From: Candidatus Limnocylindrales bacterium
Lineage (GTDB): Bacteria > Chloroflexota > Limnocylindria > Limnocylindrales > CSP1-4
Direction of reading: 5' to 3'
DNA length: 30,797 nucleotides
NCBI GenBank assembly: GCA_035255225.1
Contig: DATEZX010000191.1
Span: forward strand, 1 to 30,797
Of the stretch, positions 3 through 9,794 are shown in pieces (within the stretch, counting starts at the first letter, position 1; each line of letters starts with the position of its first letter). Below the pieces are notes generated by a model, which did not search any database, had not been told where the DNA came from, and was given only the letters and a program-made list of their open reading frames with translations. Made by a program: the position numbers and the translations under genes.

Positions 3-962
3 TCAGCCGGCGAGCTTGGCGACCGCCGCCGCCGTGGCGGCGTCGGTCACCAGGACGCGAACGATCCCCGAGCGGAGGGCTGCCAGGATCGCCGGCGCCT
101 TCGACGGCCCGGCCGCGACCGCGAACACGAGCGGGACCCGACGGAGTGCCTCGATCGGGATGGCCAGCGTCCTGGCCGACCACGATTCGAGGAACGTGCC
201 AGCCCGGCCCAGGAAGTGGCAGGCGATGTCACCGACCACGTCGAGCTCGGCGAGCTCGGTTCGCGCCTCCGCGTCGAGGCGATCGATCGCCGTCCGGTAG
301 CCCGGATGGGCATACGGCGCACCACCGATGCCCAGCACCGCCACGTCGAGCGCGTTCCACTCGGCCGCCACCGAGCCGATCGCGGAGTCCTTGAGCAGCG
401 CCTCCTTGGTCGCGGGGCTGTCGAGGACCGCCGGGGCATGGAGCGAGCGGGCCCGGGCGCCGAAGCGCTCGGCCATCCGCCGCGCCAGCTCGTTGCCGTC
501 GAAGAGCTGGTTCTGGATGTCCCAGCCGCCCACGACGGGCACGATCGTCAGGCCCGGGCGGCCGATCGCCGGCAGCGCCGACACGAGGGCCGCCACGGTA
601 TAGCCGGCCGCGATCCCGACCGTGCCCTCGTGCGGCAGGCGGGGAGCGAGATGGTCCGCCGCGGCGAGGCCCGCCAGCCGGGACGCCGCCGCGTCGTCGC
701 CGGCACCGCCAGGGGTGAGCTCGACCTGGACCCCGAACCGGGTCGCGAGCGCTTCGGCGGCCGCTGTGCGGCCGGCCTGCGGCGCCTCGACAGTGATCCG
801 GACGACACCCTGGTCACGCGCGGCGGTCAGGAGCCGCGAGACCTTGGAGATCGAGAATCCCGTGAGGTCGGCGATCTCTGGCTGGTTGAGTGCGCGCTCG
901 TAATACAGCTCCGCCACGAGGCGCATGATGTCCCGGTCCGCAGCCGGCTCGGCTCTGCTCAT
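3..962 (-). CDS. SorC/DeoR(B. subtilis)-family sugar-binding transcriptional regulator, 319 aa
   Basis: N-terminal HTH MRLVAELYYERALNQPEIADLTGFSISKVSRLLTAARDQGVVRITV, then a sugar-phosphate-binding domain (DVAVLGIG, GDIACHF, VAAGPSKAPAILAAL). ATG at 962 follows a GGAGG SD. The 554-aa ORF-track extension upstream is antisense to EIIA and was discarded. Confidence 0.93.
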   Translation of the reverse strand: MSRAEPAADRDIMRLVAELYYERALNQPEIADLTGFSISKVSRLLTAARDQGVVRITVEAPQAGRTAAAEALATRFGVQVELTPGGAGDDAAASRLAGLAAADHLAPRLPHEGTVGIAAGYTVAALVSALPAIGRPGLTIVPVVGGWDIQNQLFDGNELARRMAERFGARARSLHAPAVLDSPATKEALLKDSAIGSVAAEWNALDVAVLGIGGAPYAHPGYRTAIDRLDAEARTELAELDVVGDIACHFLGRAGTFLESWSARTLAIPIEALRRVPLVFAVAAGPSKAPAILAALRSGIVRVLVTDAATAAAVAKLAG

Positions 963-1014: not shown

Positions 1015-1044
1015 TTGACAGGCCGCGCGGCTGGACGGTACAAC
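1015..1044 (+). promoter_or_regulatory. Candidate sigma70-type promoter of the PTS operon (TTGACA-N18-TACAAC)
   Basis: Perfect -35 TTGACA at 1015-1020 and imperfect -10 TACAAC at 1039-1044, about 70 bp upstream of the EIIA start. Confidence 0.55.
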
Positions 1045-1059: not shown

Positions 1060-1086
1060 TGCAAACATTGGCCGCAATTTCTTGCA
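1060..1086. promoter_or_regulatory. Operator-like 27-bp imperfect palindrome, copy A (TGCAAACATTGGCCGCAATTTCTTGCA)
   Basis: AT-rich dyad in GC-rich DNA, located between the predicted promoter and the EIIA SD. It matches copy B at 9209-9235 in register. Confidence 0.7.
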
Positions 1087-1112
1087 CCGATGGCAGCTCG
1101 TTGAGGAGAACG

Positions 1113-1520
1113 ATGCGGGGCTTCCGGATCGTGGTGGCCGCCCATGGCGATCTCGCGCCCGGCCTCGTCTCGGCCGCGCAGCTGATCTGCGGCCAGATCG
1201 CCGACCTCGTCGCAGTCAGCCTCGAACCGACCGACTCCCCGGAATCGTTCGCCACGCGGCTGGCCGACGCCGCCCCGGATCCTGACGAGCCGTTGCTCCT
1301 CCTGACCGACCTCGTCGGCGGCACGCCCCACAACGTCGCGTTCGCCCTCGTCCGCCGACGCCCATCGGCGGTCGTCATCTCCGGCGTCAATCTCGCCGTC
1401 CTCATGGAGGCGGCGATGACCGACGAAGCGCTCGGTCCGGCGCTCGTCGAGCGGCTCGTCGAAGCGGGTCGCTCGGCGCTCTCGGACGGAGCCAGCCTGG
1501 TGGCATCCAGGAGCTCGTGA
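1113..1520 (+). CDS. PTS mannose/fructose/sorbose family EIIA, 135 aa
   Basis: IVVAAHGDLA (phospho-His), LTDLVGGTP, GVNLAVLME motifs; GAGGAG SD before ATG 1113. Confidence 0.93.
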   Translation: MRGFRIVVAAHGDLAPGLVSAAQLICGQIADLVAVSLEPTDSPESFATRLADAAPDPDEPLLLLTDLVGGTPHNVAFALVRRRPSAVVISGVNLAVLMEAAMTDEALGPALVERLVEAGRSALSDGASLVASRSS

Positions 1521-1625
1521 GGCCGACCACCGGTCGCACTTGGAGGTGTGCGGACCGGGCCCGTCGGAGCCCGCGACGGCAGGTCTACTAGCGAAGCGGA
1601 TCAGGCATCCGCAGCGGAGGGTTGG

Positions 1626-2102
1626 ATGACCCTGAAGCTCGTCCGCGTGGACGATCGGCTGATCCACGGCCAGGTCGTGGCCATCTGGCTCAAGGCGCTC
1701 GGCGCTCGCCGGATCGTCATCGTCGACGATCGCACGGCCCGCGACGACTTCCTTCGGGAGATCCTCGAGCTGGCGTCACCACCCGGCGTGCCCGTCGAGG
1801 TCCTCGAGGTCGAGCCCGGGATCGCGCGCGTCCGCGGCCTGGTCAACGATCCCGAGCCGGTGTTCGTGCTCATGCGGTCGCCCGTGACCGCCGTCCAGCT
1901 GCGAGAGGCGGGCATCGAGTTCCCGCTGCTCAACGTGGGCGGCATCGGCGCGGGGCCCGGTCGCAAGCCCCTCTACCGCAACATCTCCGCCTCCCCGGAG
2001 GAGATCGCGGCGATGCAGCGACTGGAGGCGATGGGCACGAAGGTCGAGCTCCGGATCGTCGAGAACGACCGGCCCGTGATGTTCTCGTCGGTCAAGGTCT
2101 AG
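1626..2102 (+). CDS. PTS mannose/fructose/sorbose family EIIB, 158 aa
   Basis: RVDDRLIHGQV (phospho-His) and LNVGG motifs; GGAGG SD before ATG 1626. Confidence 0.95.
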   Translation: MTLKLVRVDDRLIHGQVVAIWLKALGARRIVIVDDRTARDDFLREILELASPPGVPVEVLEVEPGIARVRGLVNDPEPVFVLMRSPVTAVQLREAGIEFPLLNVGGIGAGPGRKPLYRNISASPEEIAAMQRLEAMGTKVELRIVENDRPVMFSSVKV

Positions 2103-2133
2103 GAGGTACGGAGGTGTCTCGGAGGTGCAATTC

Positions 2134-3036
2134 ATGCAACCCGTGAACAGCTCGGTCCGAGCTCGTCGGGTTGCCGCCCTGGTAACGCTCGGGGTCCTGG
2201 CCAGCCTCTTCGTGGCCGCCCCGACGATGGCCGCCGACGGCTCTGCGCCGACGGCCGGCATCATCCAGGCGGCGCTCGTGGGACTCGGCTATTACCTGAG
2301 CAACAGCCCGTGGCTCTTCGGTAACGGTGGCTTCTTCGGCCTCTACCGGCCGCTCGTCGCGGGCCTCATCGTCGGCTTCATCTTCGGCGATCCGGTGAAG
2401 GGCGCCGAGATCGGCGCCTCGATCAACCTGCTGTATATCGGCTTCATCTCGGCCGGTGGCTCCATCCCGGCCGACCCGTCGGTCGCCGGCTGGGTCGGCA
2501 CCGCGCTCGCGATGGCGGGCGGTCTCGACGCCTCGTCGGCCATCGCCCTCGGCGTCGCGATCGGCCTGCTCGGCACGATCATCTTCTTCACCCGGATGAG
2601 CGTCGATGCGGTCTTCGCCCACTGGGCGGATGCCCGGGCCGAGGCCGGCGACATCGGCGGGGTGTCCCGGATGAACTGGGTGCCCTCGCAGATCTTCCTG
2701 TTCATCATCAGCTTCATTCCCGCGACCGTCGCGGTCTACGCGGGGTCCCAGGTCGTGGCCGACTGGATCAGTTGGCTCAACACCAACGCGCCCTGGGTCC
2801 TCCACGGCTTCCAGATCGCGGGTGGTCTGCTGCCGGCCCTCGGCATCGCGATGAACATGCGGTTCATCTTCCGGGGAACCGTCGCGGCCTACTTCTTCAT
2901 CGGCTACCTCGTCTCGGTCGCCTCGGCCGGTGGGGTCAACATCGTGATGCTCGCCGTCATCGGCGTTGCCCTCGCGATGCTCCACATCGCGTTCCTTGGC
3001 ACCCGGCCCATGGCACCAAGGGGGGCTGAGGCATGA
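2134..3036 (+). CDS. PTS mannose/fructose/sorbose family EIIC with a signal-peptide-like N-terminal extension
   Basis: RPLVAGLIVGFIFGD, GASINLLYIG-GG-PAD and GGLLPALGIAM motifs; highly hydrophobic. ATG 2134 follows GGAGG; GTG 2125 is an in-frame alternative. Confidence 0.93.
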   Translation: MQPVNSSVRARRVAALVTLGVLASLFVAAPTMAADGSAPTAGIIQAALVGLGYYLSNSPWLFGNGGFFGLYRPLVAGLIVGFIFGDPVKGAEIGASINLLYIGFISAGGSIPADPSVAGWVGTALAMAGGLDASSAIALGVAIGLLGTIIFFTRMSVDAVFAHWADARAEAGDIGGVSRMNWVPSQIFLFIISFIPATVAVYAGSQVVADWISWLNTNAPWVLHGFQIAGGLLPALGIAMNMRFIFRGTVAAYFFIGYLVSVASAGGVNIVMLAVIGVALAMLHIAFLGTRPMAPRGAEA

Positions 3037-3962
3037 CCATGCCCGAGCAAGGCGGGAAGGTCTCCCTGACCCGTGGTGACGTCCAGCGGTCGTTCTGGCT
3101 GTGGACGTTCTTCAGCCATGCCAACTACAACTACGAGCGGCTCCAGGGGACGGCCTTCGCCCAGGCGATGACGCCGATCATCCGGAAGCTCTACAAGGAC
3201 CCCGACGAGATCAAGGCCGCCCTCAAGCGGCACCTGATCTTCTTCAACACCGAGCCGAACGTCGGCGGCGTGATCCACGGCGCGGTCATCGCCATGGAGG
3301 AGGAGCGCGCCAACGGCGCGCCGATCGACGACGACGCGATCAACTCGGTCAAGACCGGGCTCATGGGTCCACTCGCGGGAATCGGCGACTCGATCAGCCA
3401 GGGCACGATCACCCCGATCCTACTCTCGATCGGCATCTCCCTCGCCGCGAGCGGCAACATCCTCGGGCCGGTCCTGTACCTCGTGCTCGAGGTCGGGATC
3501 ATGCTGGCCCTGGCGTACTTCATGTGGATGCAGGGCTACGACCGCGGCCGCACCGGGGTCATCGACATGCTCCGCAGCGGGACGCTCGACCGGTACCTCA
3601 CCGGTGCCGGGGTCCTCGGCAACCTGGTCATGGGCGCCCTGGCCTACCAGTTCGTCCACTTCTACCTGACGTGGACGATCGGGATCGACGCTGGTGGCGG
3701 CAACGTCACCCGGTTCGACCTGAACGCCGACTTCTTCGCCAAGATCATGCCGGGACTCCTGCCGCTGGGCTGGGTCCTGCTGACCTGGTACCTCATCGCC
3801 CGCCGACGGGTCAGCCCGCTGTGGGTCCTGGTCGTCTACATCATCTTCGCGATGATCGCGGCGTACCCGTTCTTCAACGCCGACGCGAACAACCCGTGCG
3901 CGTCGCTCCTCAACCCGTTCTTCCAGCCGGCGGCCGGCTGCCCGCCTCCGGCGCCGCAGTGA
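3033..3962 (+). CDS. PTS mannose/fructose/sorbose family EIID, 309 aa
   Basis: NYERLQG, RHLIFFNTEP and KTGLMGPLAGIGDS motifs; ATGA overlap with the EIIC stop. Confidence 0.95.
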   Translation: MTMPEQGGKVSLTRGDVQRSFWLWTFFSHANYNYERLQGTAFAQAMTPIIRKLYKDPDEIKAALKRHLIFFNTEPNVGGVIHGAVIAMEEERANGAPIDDDAINSVKTGLMGPLAGIGDSISQGTITPILLSIGISLAASGNILGPVLYLVLEVGIMLALAYFMWMQGYDRGRTGVIDMLRSGTLDRYLTGAGVLGNLVMGALAYQFVHFYLTWTIGIDAGGGNVTRFDLNADFFAKIMPGLLPLGWVLLTWYLIARRRVSPLWVLVVYIIFAMIAAYPFFNADANNPCASLLNPFFQPAAGCPPPAPQ

Positions 3963-3990
3963 CCTTCGGCTAGGAACCTCGCTCGCGAAA

Positions 3991-4017
3991 GCGGCCCGGG
4001 CCACCGGCCCGGGCCGC
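3991..4017. other. Perfect 12-bp GC-rich intercistronic stem-loop after EIID
   Basis: GCGGCCCGGGCC-ACC-GGCCCGGGCCGC with no U-tract; could act as a stabiliser or weak terminator. Confidence 0.6.
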
Positions 4018-4081
4018 CGTCTGTCCGGCCGGGCGGCCGCGGCGCCGTCCGGCGCGCCACGTCGAACCTCGGAGGTCCGCC

Positions 4082-5110
4082 ACGCTCCGCCTCGGGATCG
4101 GCGAGCGCTGGGCGATCGCCAGCGCCCTTGCCTACACGATCGTCAACATCACGCTCCGGGTTGCCGCGCCGCACATCGACCCGTTCCTCGGGTCGTTCGT
4201 GCGGCTGCTGCCGCTCGCGGCGCTGTCCTGGCTGGTGGTCCTGCGCTCGGGCGCCCGCGAGGTCCGTCCGTCCCACGCCGCGTTCCTGTCCTGGCGCCTG
4301 ATCGGCTACCTGCTCGCCGGCGGGGCGGCCAGCCTCATCATCGGCAACGTCTTCTATTTCCAGGCCCTGACGAACGGCGGCCTCGGGATCACGATCGGCG
4401 GCGTCCAGGCCGGCTCGATCCTCGGCGGGTTGTGGCTCGGCCTGCTCCTCAACCGTGATCGGCCGACCACCGCCCAGCTCGCAGCCGCGGTCCTGATCGT
4501 GGCCGGCCTGGCCGGGATCGCGATCGCCCAGACCCAGCAGTTCGGCGACCTGTGGTGGCTAGGCCTGGCCTTCGCGATCGGCGCCGGGACGACCTACGCC
4601 CTGGCGAACGTCTTCAGCCGGACGGTCCAGCGCGAACGACCCCTGTTGTTCGTCAGCCAGGCCGTCTCGATGGTCGGCGGCGGCGTCCCGCTGGCGCTGA
4701 TCCTCGTGGGCCGAGTCGCCGCGGGGGAGTCCATCCCGATCGACGGCGGCTCGGTTGCCGCGGTCCTGCTGGCCGGCTGCTTCAACGCGGTGGCCCTGCT
4801 GACCCTGACCCTCGCCGTGCGCGCGGCGACGGTCGCGACCGTCAACACGATCGGCTCGTCGACCGTGGTCCTGAGCTTCATCGCCTCGGTCACGCTGTTC
4901 GGCGAGACGAGCAGCGCACCGATGGTCGCCGGGATCGCGCTCGTGACGGTCGGGATCGTGGTCGCCCAGCTCCGGCGCCGGGCCTCGAGGGGGTCGGCGA
5001 CGGCCCTCCCGGAGGCTGCCACCGCGGAGCCCGCCGCGACCGAGCCCTCGGCGGCTCCCGAGCCGGCCGTGACGGCTACGGAGCCGGCGTCGCCGCCAGC
5101 GGCGAGGTGA
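4082..5110 (+). CDS. EamA/DMT-family transporter; probable non-canonical ACG start (first canonical start is GTG 4199)
   Basis: About 10 hydrophobic segments in two repeats (WAIASALAYTIVNITLR; AFAIGAGTTYALANVFSR); GGAGG SD 6 nt before the in-frame ACG at 4082; Pro/Ala/Glu/Thr-rich C-terminal tail. Confidence 0.8.
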   Translation, partial: TLRLGIGERWAIASALAYTIVNITLRVAAPHIDPFLGSFVRLLPLAALSWLVVLRSGAREVRPSHAAFLSWRLIGYLLAGGAASLIIGNVFYFQALTNGGLGITIGGVQAGSILGGLWLGLLLNRDRPTTAQLAAAVLIVAGLAGIAIAQTQQFGDLWWLGLAFAIGAGTTYALANVFSRTVQRERPLLFVSQAVSMVGGGVPLALILVGRVAAGESIPIDGGSVAAVLLAGCFNAVALLTLTLAVRAATVATVNTIGSSTVVLSFIASVTLFGETSSAPMVAGIALVTVGIVVAQLRRRASRGSATALPEAATAEPAATEPSAAPEPAVTATEPASPPAAR

Positions 5111-5564
5111 TCCGCAGGAAGTAGCCGTCCGGGTCGGCCAGCCGGAAGTCGGTGCAGTTCCACGGCCGGTCCTGGAGGCCCTTCACGATGCTCAGCCCCG
5201 CACGGGCCGCCGCGGCGTGGACGGCATCGACGTCCGAGACCTGGACGACGATCTCGACGCCCGTGCCGCGCGGGATTCGCCCGATGTCGGGCGTGAAGTA
5301 GTGCGGCCCGGCCGAGACGTGGTCGTCGAGCTCGAGGCGGATCCCGACGCCCTCGCGCTCCATCCAGGCGCCCTTCGTCCAGGCGTTGGTCGCCCGGAAG
5401 CCGAGGGCCTCGTAGAACGCCCGGCTGCGGGCCACGTCGCGGACGAACAGCTCGACGATGACCGGGAAGCGCGGCGCCGGCCCGCCGCCCGGCGCCGGCT
5501 CGCCGCCCGGCGCCGGCTCGGGCGACGCAGCGGCCGCGGGCGACGGCGCGCCGTGGAGCGTCAC
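5076..5564 (-). CDS. VOC/glyoxalase/bleomycin-resistance family protein, about 162 aa
   Basis: VELFVRDVARSRAFYEALGF and DRPWNCTDFRLADPDGYFLRI motifs; GTG 4 nt after the ALDH stop; low-complexity N-terminus. Confidence 0.85.
   Translation of the reverse strand: MTLHGAPSPAAAASPEPAPGGEPAPGGGPAPRFPVIVELFVRDVARSRAFYEALGFRATNAWTKGAWMEREGVGIRLELDDHVSAGPHYFTPDIGRIPRGTGVEIVVQVSDVDAVHAAAARAGLSIVKGLQDRPWNCTDFRLADPDGYFLRITSPLAATPAP
5484..5519. repeat. 18-bp perfect tandem duplication encoding EPAPGG x2 in the VOC N-terminus
   Basis: gccgcccggcgccggctc occurs at 5484-5501 and 5502-5519. Confidence 0.8.
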
Positions 5565-5568
5565 CGGG

Positions 5569-7095
5569 TCACCGCCCCGCGTCGGCGATCCGGAACACGA
5601 TCTGCTTGTGCTGCTGGTACTTCTCGATCCCGACCCCACCGTAGCCCGACTGCTTGTAGCCGTGGCCGGGCGCCTCGAGGACGCCGGTCGAGAACCACTG
5701 GTTGACGTAGACCTGGCCGGCCTTGAGGCCGCGCGCCAGGCGCCACCCCCGGTCGAGGTCGCGGGTGAAGACGCCCGCGGAGAGGCCGTAGGTCGTGTCG
5801 TTGGCGATCGCCAGGGCCTCGGCCTCGGTGTCGAACGGCAGGATCGTCGCGACCGGGCCGAAGATCTCCTCGCGCGCGATCCGGCACGTCGGCGTCGCGT
5901 CGACGAAGACCGTCGGCGGGATGTACGCGCCCTTCGAGCGGATCGGGTCGGTGTAGCGAGTGCCGCCGGTCCGAAGCGTGGCCTCGCGCTTGCCGATCGC
6001 GATGTAGTCCCAGACCTTGGCCGCGTGGCTGGCGGCGATGACCGGCCCGAGCTCGGTCGAGGGATCGAGCGGTTCCCCGACCTTCATCGCCTCGGCCTTC
6101 GCGACGAGCGCGTCGACGAAGCGCTCCTGGATCGAGCGTTCCACGAGGATCCGCGAGCCACAGACGCAGATCTGGCCGGTGTTGCCGAAGGCCCCGAGCG
6201 TGCTCCAGAAGACGGCCGTGTCGAGATCCGCGTCGGCGAACACGAGATTCGGGTTCTTGCCGCCGAGCTCGAGCGAGATCCGCTTCACCTGCGAGGCGGC
6301 TGCCTCGAGGATGCGCGAGCCGGTCTCGATGCCGCCGGTCAGGCTGATCATGTCGACCCGTGGGTCGGCGACCAGGGCCTCACCGACGGACCCACCGGGC
6401 CCGGCGAGGACGTTGACCGCGCCCGGCGGGAGGTCGGCCTCCACGAGGAGCTGGGCGACGCGCATGAAGCACAGCGATGCCATCTGCGCGGGCTTGACGA
6501 TCGCGGCATTGCCCGCGGCGAGGATCGCGGCCATGCGCTGGATGCCGGTCCACAGGGGACCGTTCCAGGGCAGGATCTCGACGACCACGCCGAGCGGCTC
6601 GATGAGCTCGTGGTGGACGACCGACGCGTCCGGCATCTCGGCCACCGCGCCGCGGGTCGTCCGGGCCCGGCCGCCGAAGTAGCGCAGCGAGTCAAGGCTG
6701 ATCGAGAGATCCGAGTAGTGGACCGAGCTGATCGGCTTGCCGGCATCGATCGTCTCGAGGAACGCCAGCTCGTCGGCGTGCTTCTCGATGAGGTCGGCGA
6801 TCCGGAGGAGGGCGGCCGCCCGGTCGCGGGCGGTCGTTCGGCCCCACGGCCCCTCGTCGAACGCCTGGCGGGCCGAACCGACCGCGGCCGCGACGTCGTC
6901 GGGGCCGGCCTGCGAGATCTTCGCCACCGGCTCGTTGTCGCGCGGGCTGATGGCCGGGAAGACGGCGCCGTCGGCCGCGGGGGCGAGGCGCCCGCCGATG
7001 AGCAGGGGATAGGGGTCCCTGCTGACGCTCGCCCAGCGCGGGTCAGCGGCCGGATCGAAGGTCGTCGTGGTCGTGGTGGTCGCGTGGGTCTCCAT
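5569..7095 (-). CDS. Aldehyde dehydrogenase, 508 aa, substrate unknown
   Basis: PWNGP, ELGGKNP (catalytic Glu), GQICVCGSR (catalytic Cys) and EEIFGPV motifs; GGAGG SD; poly-Thr N-terminus. Confidence 0.95.
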   Translation of the reverse strand: METHATTTTTTTFDPAADPRWASVSRDPYPLLIGGRLAPAADGAVFPAISPRDNEPVAKISQAGPDDVAAAVGSARQAFDEGPWGRTTARDRAAALLRIADLIEKHADELAFLETIDAGKPISSVHYSDLSISLDSLRYFGGRARTTRGAVAEMPDASVVHHELIEPLGVVVEILPWNGPLWTGIQRMAAILAAGNAAIVKPAQMASLCFMRVAQLLVEADLPPGAVNVLAGPGGSVGEALVADPRVDMISLTGGIETGSRILEAAASQVKRISLELGGKNPNLVFADADLDTAVFWSTLGAFGNTGQICVCGSRILVERSIQERFVDALVAKAEAMKVGEPLDPSTELGPVIAASHAAKVWDYIAIGKREATLRTGGTRYTDPIRSKGAYIPPTVFVDATPTCRIAREEIFGPVATILPFDTEAEALAIANDTTYGLSAGVFTRDLDRGWRLARGLKAGQVYVNQWFSTGVLEAPGHGYKQSGYGGVGIEKYQQHKQIVFRIADAGR

Positions 7096-7185
7096 CTCGG
7101 ACCTCCGATCGGGCAGCGGGGCGCGGGGGACGCTGCGGTGGCGAGGCTACGGCAGATCGCGGGCTGGGGCGCGTGACGATGGTTC

Positions 7186-7224
7186 GGCGCCCGGGCGCGG
7201 CTCCTGGGCCCGCGCCCGGGCGCC
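7186..7224. other. Perfect 15-bp GC-rich intercistronic stem-loop between aldolase and ALDH
   Basis: GGCGCCCGGGCGCGG-N9-CCGCGCCCGGGCGCC, 6 bp downstream of the aldolase stop; no U-tract. Confidence 0.65.
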
Positions 7225-7230
7225 TCGAGA

Positions 7231-7998
7231 TCAGCTGTGGACGAGCTGGCCCGCGGCCTCGAGCGCCTCGTCAACCGAGGCGTCGCCGTGGATGATCGCG
7301 GCGAGGCCCCGGGTGATCCCGGCCGGGTCGGGGTCGCGCCAGATGTTGTTGCCGATCGCGACGCCCGCGACGCCGGCGAGGTTCACCGCGTCATAGACGT
7401 CCTGGTACAGCTCCCGGACGGAGCCCTTCTTGGCGCCGCCGAGGATGACGACCGGGACCATCGCGTACTCGACGACCACCCGCATCGTCTCGGGATCGCC
7501 GGTGTAGAAGGTCTTGATCATGTCGGCGCCGGTCTCGGCCGAGATCCGGGCACCCGCCGCGATCTTGTCGGGCGTGTGCATGTCCATTGCCGCGAAGCCA
7601 CCGGGCACCGACTCGGCGATGTATGGCAGCCCGAACCGGTCCGCGTCGGCCGCGAGGCGGGCCGCCTGGCGGATCGACTCGTCGCCGGTGAACGGGTAGA
7701 GCATCGACTTCACCGCGTCCGCCCCGACCGAGAGGGCGCGCTCGACCGCGACCTCGAGGAAGGGTGGGGTGGTGTCGAACGAGGCGATCGCCGCTGCCGG
7801 GCCGATCTGGTCGCCGAAGGCGATGATCGAGCCGATCGGCGACAGGAAGGCATCCGCGCCGGCCGGGACGACCGAGGCGCACGTCTGGCCGTACTTCGCC
7901 AGCCCGTCGACGGGCGCGTCCATGAACGCGGTGTGGTCCATCGCGACGATGAGGATCCGGCCGTCCTCCTTGAGGAGCCGATGCATCCGGCGCTTCAT
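7231..7998 (-). CDS. Class I (Schiff-base) aldolase, DhnA/LsrF-like family, 255 aa
   Basis: IVAMDH (Asp), GADMIKTFY (Schiff-base Lys), VVILGG, AIGNNIW motifs; GGAGG SD. Confidence 0.88.
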   Translation of the reverse strand: MKRRMHRLLKEDGRILIVAMDHTAFMDAPVDGLAKYGQTCASVVPAGADAFLSPIGSIIAFGDQIGPAAAIASFDTTPPFLEVAVERALSVGADAVKSMLYPFTGDESIRQAARLAADADRFGLPYIAESVPGGFAAMDMHTPDKIAAGARISAETGADMIKTFYTGDPETMRVVVEYAMVPVVILGGAKKGSVRELYQDVYDAVNLAGVAGVAIGNNIWRDPDPAGITRGLAAIIHGDASVDEALEAAGQLVHS

Positions 7999-8040
7999 TC
8001 GCTGTGCCTCCAGTGTGTCGTGCGTCCTGGGTGGGGTCGG

Positions 8041-9114
8041 TCAGATCTCGACGATGACGCGGTACGTGCCGGGCTTGATGGCCTCCTCGAGGGCGGCGGT
8101 CAGCTCGGCGAGCGGGTAGCGGACATCGATGAGCGGGCTGAGGTCGACGAGGCCGTAGCGGACGAGCCGCGCCGCGGTGTAGAAGTCCCGCTTCTCGCCG
8201 GACAGCACGCCGAACACCCCGGTCTCGCGGTTGTGGGTCTCGTTGGGCTTGATCGTGAACTCGGGCTCGGGATGGGCCGCCGCGAAGAGGACGAAGCGGC
8301 CCTTGTCGGACAGCATCGCCCAGCCCTGGTCGTTGGCGCTCTTGTGGCCGATGGCCGCGATGACGGCCTCGGCGCCGCGCCCCTCGGTCAGCTCCTTGAC
8401 CCGGGCGACCGGGTCCTCCTTCGAGCCGTCGATCAGCTCGTCGGCGCCCATCCGCCCGGCCATCGCGAGGCGGCCGGGATCGATCTCGCTGACGATGACC
8501 CGGGCCCCGTGCTGCTTGGCTGCGATGACGTTCATGAGGCCCATCACGCCGGCGCCGAGGACGACGACGTCCTGGCCGACGTAGAGGTCGAGGAGCCGCG
8601 TCGCGTGGATCGCGCAGGACAACGGCTCGGTCAGCGCGGCGACGCCGTACTCGGCATCACCGACGCGGTAGACGCCGTCGGCGGGATGGGTCTTGTACTG
8701 GGCGAAACCGCCCGGCCCCCAGGCCTCGCCGTACTTGACCGAGCCGGCGTAGTGGAGCTTGCAGGCCCGATCCTGACCGGTGTAGCACCAGTGGCACTTG
8801 CCGCACGACGACGAGCCGACGGTCACGCGCTCGCCGACCTTCAGGTCGGTGTACGTCCCCGGGCCGATCGCCGCGACCTCGCCCGCCATCTCGTGGCCGC
8901 CGACGAACGGGAACTTGTTCGCCTGGGCGCCGCTGTAGCTGCGCTGCTCCCAGGTGCAGATCGCGGTGGCGTGGAGTCGGACGAGGATCTCGCCTGGGGC
9001 CGGCTCCGGGATCGGCAGGTCCTGAATCGAGAGGTCGCGGATCCCCGCCATGACCCCGACCTTCATGGTCTCCGTCGTGCCCGCCCGAGGGGCCTCCAAC
9101 ACCGGAGTCGTCAT
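8041..9114 (-). CDS. Zn-dependent medium-chain alcohol/polyol dehydrogenase (sorbitol/iditol DH-like), 357 aa
   Basis: ICTWE, GHEMAG, structural Zn site C-x2-C-x2-C-x7-C (CGKCHWCYTGQDRAC), EPLSCAIH, GAGVMG. ATG 9114; alternative ATG 9066. Confidence 0.92.
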   Translation of the reverse strand: MTTPVLEAPRAGTTETMKVGVMAGIRDLSIQDLPIPEPAPGEILVRLHATAICTWEQRSYSGAQANKFPFVGGHEMAGEVAAIGPGTYTDLKVGERVTVGSSSCGKCHWCYTGQDRACKLHYAGSVKYGEAWGPGGFAQYKTHPADGVYRVGDAEYGVAALTEPLSCAIHATRLLDLYVGQDVVVLGAGVMGLMNVIAAKQHGARVIVSEIDPGRLAMAGRMGADELIDGSKEDPVARVKELTEGRGAEAVIAAIGHKSANDQGWAMLSDKGRFVLFAAAHPEPEFTIKPNETHNRETGVFGVLSGEKRDFYTAARLVRYGLVDLSPLIDVRYPLAELTAALEEAIKPGTYRVIVEI

Positions 9115-9208
9115 GCTCCCCACCCTCCCGGCGCCGCCGCAGCGAATCGTGTCGACGCGGTCCGTCCGCGAGTACGCCGTGCGCGGTGCCGCGGTCCTGC
9201 GGTGCCAG

Positions 9209-9235
9209 TGCAAATCCTTGCAGCAAGGAATAGCA
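9209..9235. promoter_or_regulatory. Operator-like 27-bp palindrome, copy B (TGCAAATCCTTGCAGCAAGGAATAGCA)
   Basis: 11 of 13 arm positions are complementary. Same TGCAAA...GCAA...GCA register as copy A. Immediately downstream of the minus-strand extended -10. Confidence 0.75.
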
Positions 9236-9247
9236 CGCTGCCTGCGG

Positions 9248-9256
9248 ATGATAGCA
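9248..9256 (-). promoter_or_regulatory. Extended -10 promoter (TGnTATCAT) of the dehydrogenase-aldolase-ALDH-VOC operon
   Basis: Minus strand reads TGC TATCAT; the predicted start near 9241 is just upstream of operator B. Confidence 0.6.
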
Positions 9257-9355: not shown

Positions 9356-9384
9356 TTGACGGCCAGATCGCGGGTCCCTAGGAT
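9356..9384 (+). promoter_or_regulatory. Housekeeping promoter TTGACG-N17-TAGGAT, leaderless geometry
   Basis: The -10 ends 8 nt before ATG 9393 and no SD is present. Confidence 0.7.
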
Positions 9385-9392
9385 AGTTGCGT

Positions 9393-9794
9393 ATGCAACA
9401 AGTCATCGATCCGCGGGTGACGCGTGCACTCGCGCATGGCCAGACCATCGACATCACGACCACCGGCCGGCTGACGGGCGCGCCACGCCGCATCGAGATC
9501 GTGTTCCACAACCTCGATGGCCGGATCTACATCTCAGGCATCCCGAACCCGCACCGACAGCGAGCCTGGCTCCGCAACCTGCAGGCAGACCCGCGCCTGA
9601 TGTTCCATCTCAAGGGGCCCGTCGCTGTCGACCTCCCGGCCACGGCCCGCGTGGTCTCGGACCCCGACGAGCGGTGGCCGATCCTCCAGCGGATCGCCCG
9701 AATCTGGCGCCGGGATCCTGAGCCGATGCAGGCCTTCAGCCCGCTCGTCGAAGTCGAGATCGAGGGCTACACCCCGGCCGCGGCGGTCGCCTGA
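9393..9794 (+). CDS. Nitroreductase/deazaflavin(F420)-dependent oxidoreductase family (split beta-barrel), 133 aa
   Basis: IDITTTGRLTGAPRRIEI and WLRNLQADP motifs. Confidence 0.8.
   Translation: MQQVIDPRVTRALAHGQTIDITTTGRLTGAPRRIEIVFHNLDGRIYISGIPNPHRQRAWLRNLQADPRLMFHLKGPVAVDLPATARVVSDPDERWPILQRIARIWRRDPEPMQAFSPLVEVEIEGYTPAAAVA

Follow-up and report, generated by a model that had tools for sequence, protein, structure and literature searches.

The 30,797 nucleotides analysed here (the window) make up a single contig of the metagenome-assembled genome (MAG; G000) of a Candidatus Limnocylindrales bacterium; the assembly has 2.4 Mb and a GC content of 72%. The window carries a gene for a SorC-family regulator, an operon for a mannose-class phosphotransferase system (PTS) and, convergent to the latter, an operon of three enzyme genes (5569-9114, minus strand). 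The subject of this work is a pair of 27-bp candidate operators, A and B, one in the leader of each operon, to which a preliminary description of the sequence had drawn attention. The features concerned are the following.

3-962, minus strand: regulator of the SorC/DeoR subfamily of the SorC family, with a short N-terminal helix-turn-helix (HTH) and a sugar-binding domain; the protein proposed to recognise both sites
1015-1044, plus strand: predicted promoter of the PTS operon, TTGACA (1015-1020), 18-nt spacer, TACAAC (1039-1044), read from the sequence
1060-1086, plus strand: site A, 27-bp candidate operator in the PTS leader, starting 15 nt past the -10
1113-1520, 1548-2102, 2125-3036 and 3033-3962, plus strand: mannose-class PTS genes IIA, IIB, IIC and IID (Pfam PF03610, PF03830, PF03609 and PF03613)
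4199-5110, plus strand: EamA-family transporter (Pfam PF00892, E 1.2e-10), by strand and position probably the last gene of the PTS operon
7095-5569, minus strand: aldehyde dehydrogenase (ALDH) of the enzyme operon (Pfam and NCBIfam)
7998-7231, minus strand: DhnA/DeoC-type class I aldolase of the enzyme operon (Pfam and NCBIfam)
9114-8041, minus strand: Zn-dependent dehydrogenase (ADH) of the enzyme operon (Pfam and NCBIfam)
9209-9235, plus strand (register with site A): site B, 27-bp candidate operator in the enzyme-operon leader, starting 12 nt past the minus-strand -10
9256-9248, minus strand: predicted extended -10 of the enzyme operon, TGCTATCAT, of the TGnTATnAT type, read from the sequence

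Both sites have the sequences quoted in the preliminary description and are AT-rich, 44% GC each against 72% for the window. They lie outside coding sequence, and the start codons at 962, 1113 and 9114 are consistent with the ends of the orthologue alignments. Site A is self-complementary at 18 of 27 positions and site B at 22; in register, the two are identical at 17. Counted from the start expected of the predicted promoter, site A would span roughly +8 to +35.

Taken as a bare pair, the two sites resemble each other weakly. An identity of 17/27 between the two intergenic regions was matched in 191 of 200 shuffles and is thus not significant, while a composition-weighted score, in which A/T matches count more in this GC-rich DNA, was matched in three of 200 and is modestly unusual. 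Shuffling against the pattern of the preliminary description is circular, as that pattern was itself taken from sites A and B, and it was replaced by matrices derived from other genomes. Since the raw likeness is weak, the significance of the pair rests on conservation and genome-wide specificity, both of which are strong.

For the genome-wide scans, matrices were built from the sites of other genomes, with those of G000 left out, and each scan covered 4.79 million G000 positions. The A-site matrix placed site A at the top (36.6 bits) and site B as the next locus (18.0 bits), the best match elsewhere reaching 8.6 bits. The B-site matrix gave the mirror image: site B at 48.0 bits, site A as the next locus at 18.4 bits and the best match elsewhere at 7.4 bits. 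Sites A and B are therefore reciprocal best loci in the whole genome, which bears out the earlier claim that they link the transport and enzyme operons. The 18-nt core TGCAA-N6-GCNGCAA, in turn, was found twice in each of five relatives of 88-94% completeness, one copy belonging to each promoter; one additional core match in G079 is at the level of reversed-pattern controls. Neither matrix nor core-pattern scans revealed a third regulon member in G000 or the five near-complete relatives. On this sequence evidence, the regulon appears to consist of these two operons only.

Absence of the sites upstream of orthologous operons had been named beforehand as the outcome that would speak against a shared operator. 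The reverse was found. Orthologues of the regulator are present in 17 and those of ADH in 18 of 66 genomes of the genus, both together in 15, and the genomes with only one of the two are incomplete MAGs. All 16 orthologous loci with upstream DNA have an A-type site just past the conserved PTS promoter, and each of the 18 orthologous ADH-aldolase-ALDH promoters has a B-type site past its conserved extended -10. The rest of the intergenic DNA varies, and the sites are kept even where regulator identity falls to 53%. Fortuitous similarity of two AT-rich patches near promoters would account for the shuffling result given above; it is refuted by the reciprocal best matches obtained with independent matrices, the conservation in 34 orthologous promoters and the single copy per promoter in each near-complete genome.

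Conservation extends to the promoters. The preliminary description had predicted them just upstream of each site, and both are present there and conserved over the genus. The -35 and -10 blocks of the PTS promoter are at least 90% conserved over 15 genus loci, with a variable spacer, and are also kept in other genera, whereas the enzyme-operon promoter has a conserved extended -10 in 18 loci and no conserved -35 in this clade. In the intergenic profiles of both regions, conservation reaches 90% or more only in the -35 and -10 blocks, the 27-mer and the ribosome-binding site. A consensus promoter scan flagged neither promoter. On the minus strand, TGCTAT occurs twice 21 nt apart (window 9229-9256), in the extended -10 and at the left end of site B, and this duplication is also found in clade-1 relatives. 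Clade-2 ADH promoters bear a second CGGAATYC box where a -35 would be expected, some 39 bp upstream of CGGAATTCC, the left end of the B operator. This box was seen in L021 (G006; some 130-20 nt before the ADH start), G002, G043, G057, G079, G041, G010, G077 and G081, and it may serve as an auxiliary half-operator or be no more than a -35 element.

Alignment of the orthologous sites led us to refine the anatomy of the element. The words shared by the two sites were originally given as TGCAAA, a central GCAA and a terminal T.GCA; over the genus, the near-invariant positions are 1-5 (TGCAA) and 12-18 (GCNGCAA). The right arm (23-27) is variable: it reads TTGCA in clade 1 and in B sites, and is replaced or shifted by about 3 nt in clade-2 A sites. 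The dyad symmetry noticed at the outset is real, yet a 13-bp unit, TGCAA-N4-TTGC, present twice in tandem describes the site better than a simple palindrome, with TGCAA-like pentamers at 1-5, 10-14, 14-18 and 23-27. Direct and inverted repeat are both plausible readings: clade-2 A sites fit a 13-bp direct repeat well and clade-1 sites a palindrome of 27-29 bp. The inner dyad of site B, positions 7-9 pairing with 19-21, is partly lineage-specific, and the palindromic pairs common to all B sites are only 2, 5 and 10-13. Two adjacent half-operators with paired signatures, as is typical of SorC-family operators of the DeoR/CggR type, are thus discernible, and tandem units are found in other genera too. 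A possible third 13-bp unit in the genus (GGCAG at 1092-1096 and CTGCC at 9238-9242, resembling the third unit of other genera) is doubtful: it is not conserved in the genus profile, and its spacing and orientation are inconsistent.

On a wider scale, the divergent arrangement of regulator gene and PTS operon is kept in about 70 loci; across the 76 Limnocylindria loci compared, the regulator was divergent without exception, and a related element is always located downstream of the conserved promoter. In other Limnocylindrales genera, this element either has the same 27-bp layout (in several of them) or extends over about 41 bp, in some three units. The best-conserved unit of the 41-bp blocks is a 14-bp palindrome, TGCAA-N4-TTGCA or a TCTCA variant.

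Both sites are probably transcribed, and clade-1 A sites could form a hairpin with arms of 6-10 bp, so it may be asked whether the conserved element works as RNA in the two 5' leaders, by forming a hairpin, binding a protein or acting in the manner of a riboswitch. Orientation argues strongly for DNA. Although the operons converge, all genomes that have both sites carry the two core copies on one and the same DNA strand, which means that A and B have opposite orientations with respect to transcription. Their mean identity is 18.4/27 when compared on the same DNA strand and 14.3/27 in the same transcriptional orientation, which upholds the plus-strand register originally proposed; in the second clade, the corresponding values are 19-20 and 12-13 of 27. 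The consensus of A and B has no common RNA fold (0.0 kcal/mol). Within each class, the sense strand folds weakly and the antisense strand about as weakly or better, predicted structures vary among orthologues, and the invariant bases fall in would-be loops. No conserved secondary structure with covariation was found in the transcribed orientation of the A and B leaders, and Rfam has no match to the element. We consider a function as RNA very improbable; same-strand polarity at convergent operons and the lack of a shared fold indicate that the element is read as double-stranded DNA. A weak terminator-like stem of 5 bp called within site A was dropped, as it is not conserved as a structure.

What, then, binds the two sites? 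The obvious candidate is encoded next to site A. The regulator contains the SorC-type sugar-binding (effector) domain (Pfam PF04198, residues 64-314, E 4.5e-48), and its closest solved structure is Klebsiella SorC (2w48, full-length match, E 1e-26), followed by LsrR, DeoR and CggR. The SorC/DeoR subfamily is defined by an N-terminal HTH of about 50-60 residues, as opposed to the winged HTH of about 100 residues in CggR (PMC11229326). The window's regulator belongs to this short-HTH group: its effector domain begins at residue 64, and the alignment with 2w48, which starts at residue 12, spans the HTH. Against the NCBIfam DeoR equivalog model it scores 130 bits, below the cutoff of 420 bits, and hence it is not a DeoR orthologue. 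To judge from these sequence comparisons, it is not an orthologue of LsrR or CggR either.

We consider it likely that A and B are two copies of one operator, most likely bound by the 3-962 regulator, which would repress the PTS and enzyme operons as one small regulon; it is the occurrence of one operator type at both promoters that joins the operons. As to which protein binds, in what oligomeric state, with what effector, and whether it represses or activates, we infer the following. The regulator would bind each operator copy, probably as a dimer of dimers, with each dimer on one 13-bp unit of two TGCAA/TTGCA-like pentamers. Since both operators begin 12-15 nt after the -10, the bound protein would block initiation, at open-complex formation, or early elongation at both operons. 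A phosphorylated sugar from the pathway would then release the repressor. The position just downstream of the -10, called repressor geometry in the preliminary description, fits repression; repressor action itself is our deduction from it.

Several observations weigh against this proposal. The link between regulator and sites consists of adjacency and co-occurrence, which any locus-specific factor would also satisfy. Three MAGs that are 73-81% complete (G058, G061 and G010) have the ADH operon and a B site, while no regulator was detected in them. The conserved span in the genus, 27 bp, is shorter than the 39-45 bp of characterised SorC-family operators, and the 13-bp spacing of the units is not a whole number of helical turns. 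Site positions relative to +1 are estimates from predicted promoters. Finally, Klebsiella SorC is reported to be both an activator and a repressor.

The first two of these points would equally suit a real shared operator bound by another factor, such as a global carbon regulator or a protein encoded elsewhere. This we regard as unlikely. A site found at only these two promoters per genome is a poor fit to a global regulator, the regulator gene always adjoins site A, and Pfam annotation of the window revealed no second regulator gene between the two operons. Moreover, the three exceptions are incomplete MAGs, one of which (G010) has a regulator fragment at a contig end.

The dual role described for Klebsiella SorC raises another possibility, namely that the SorC-family protein does bind but activates, or both activates and represses. 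In favour of this, the PTS -10, TACAAC, does not end in the usual T, and no -35 is conserved at the ADH promoter. Sites starting 12-15 nt past the -10, however, occupy DNA that the initiating polymerase also covers, as is usual for repressor sites, and CggR also works from a downstream operator. Activation or dual control is, in our opinion, distinctly improbable, and repression by the 3-962 regulator remains the preferred explanation.

Characterised members of the family offer useful comparison. Bacillus subtilis DeoR binds as a tetramer (dimer of dimers) to the 39-bp dra-nupC-pdp operator, which is composed of TTGAA/TTCAA pentamers and located at -60 to -21, and B. subtilis CggR binds cooperatively, also as a tetramer, to a 45-bp tandem gapA operator at +32 to +77, one half of which is much stronger; both operator complexes are released or loosened by sugar phosphates (PMC11229326). 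The window's regulator belongs to the same subfamily as DeoR, in which the HTH is short (about 60 residues) and is joined to a SorC sugar-binding domain, and its gene likewise lies beside a regulated operon. The operators are also alike in that AT-rich pentamers form a palindromic pair with further copies (TTGAA/TTCAA in DeoR, TGCAA/TTGCA here). They differ in pentamer sequence, in length (39 bp versus 27 bp), in position (-60 to -21 versus past the -10) and in the distance between paired pentamers (6 nt versus 4 nt). The similarity to CggR lies in a tandem two-half operator downstream of the transcription start with unequal halves, one unit being much better conserved across genera in our case. 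Unlike CggR, with its winged HTH of about 100 residues and its 45-bp operator of GC-containing repeats, the window's regulator has a short HTH and only a weak CggR match (E 4e-8). By analogy, the operator described here may work like those of DeoR and CggR, being more compact and having a pentamer of its own.

One might go further and suppose that the four-pentamer geometry (centre spacings of 9 and 4 bp, 13 bp between units), together with the fixed strand polarity, means that a SorC/DeoR-subfamily tetramer grips DNA more compactly than in the 39-45 bp complexes of DeoR and CggR, and that the regulon serves an undescribed PTS-linked dehydrogenase/DhnA-type aldolase/ALDH route in uncultured Limnocylindria. 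Such a combined proposal is speculative, and we are rather doubtful about it.

In gene content, the locus recalls the Klebsiella pneumoniae SorC/sor (L-sorbose) operon, where a SorC regulator likewise accompanies a mannose-class PTS of four components and a Zn-dependent dehydrogenase. Identity is low, and the enzymes here are in a separate, convergent operon. The sor operon lacks a DhnA-type aldolase and an aldehyde dehydrogenase, both of which are present in our enzyme operon. No named pathway model scored above cutoff for the combination of a dehydrogenase, a DhnA/ADH-synthase-like aldolase and ALDH with a mannose-class PTS and EamA, and none of the papers in the literature searched joins Limnocylindria with the phosphotransferase system. 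Shared control would be an independent argument for assigning the mannose-class PTS and the dehydrogenase-aldolase-ALDH operon to one pathway. An uncharacterised SorC-family regulator also gains a candidate binding site and a regulon of two operons, in a Chloroflexota class, Candidatus Limnocylindria, that is known only from metagenomes. Within a family with few defined operators, this would be a new operator variant; the general view of SorC-family regulation is unchanged. The shared operator is, in sum, an ordinary regulon prediction, well supported by comparative sequence data.

A few loci outside the set described above also deserve mention. The contigs L064, L067 and L116, labelled Sulfomarinibacteraceae, Deferrimicrobiaceae and Patescibacteria, respectively, encode regulators 53-61% identical to that of the window. 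Genus-type A sites are present in L064 and L116, and L067 has no upstream DNA; the labels of all three probably reflect mis-binning or mislabelling. An actinobacterial (Micrococcales) MAG, L120, displays the same divergent arrangement of regulator and PTS IIA-IIB-IIC-IID genes, with a regulator 37% identical and a weak intergenic motif match, and could represent a distant homologue or a transfer. In three long-read MAGs (L121, L122 and L123), the regulator match is broken over two or three frames, either by sequencing frameshifts or because these are pseudogenes.

Two further observations concern the vicinity of the enzyme operon. Between the aldolase and ALDH genes (window 7178-7235) there is a weak match to the Actino-pnp RNA (23 bits, E 0.28, gathering score 47.7), probably due to chance. 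A promoter-like sequence, TTGACG-N17-TAGGAT (window 9356-9394), ends 9 nt before the ATG of a gene resembling deazaflavin (F420H2)-dependent oxidoreductases, and at such a short distance the transcript of this gene would be almost leaderless. The flank upstream of site B varies between genomes, which assigns this site to the ADH operon and not to the oxidoreductase-like gene.

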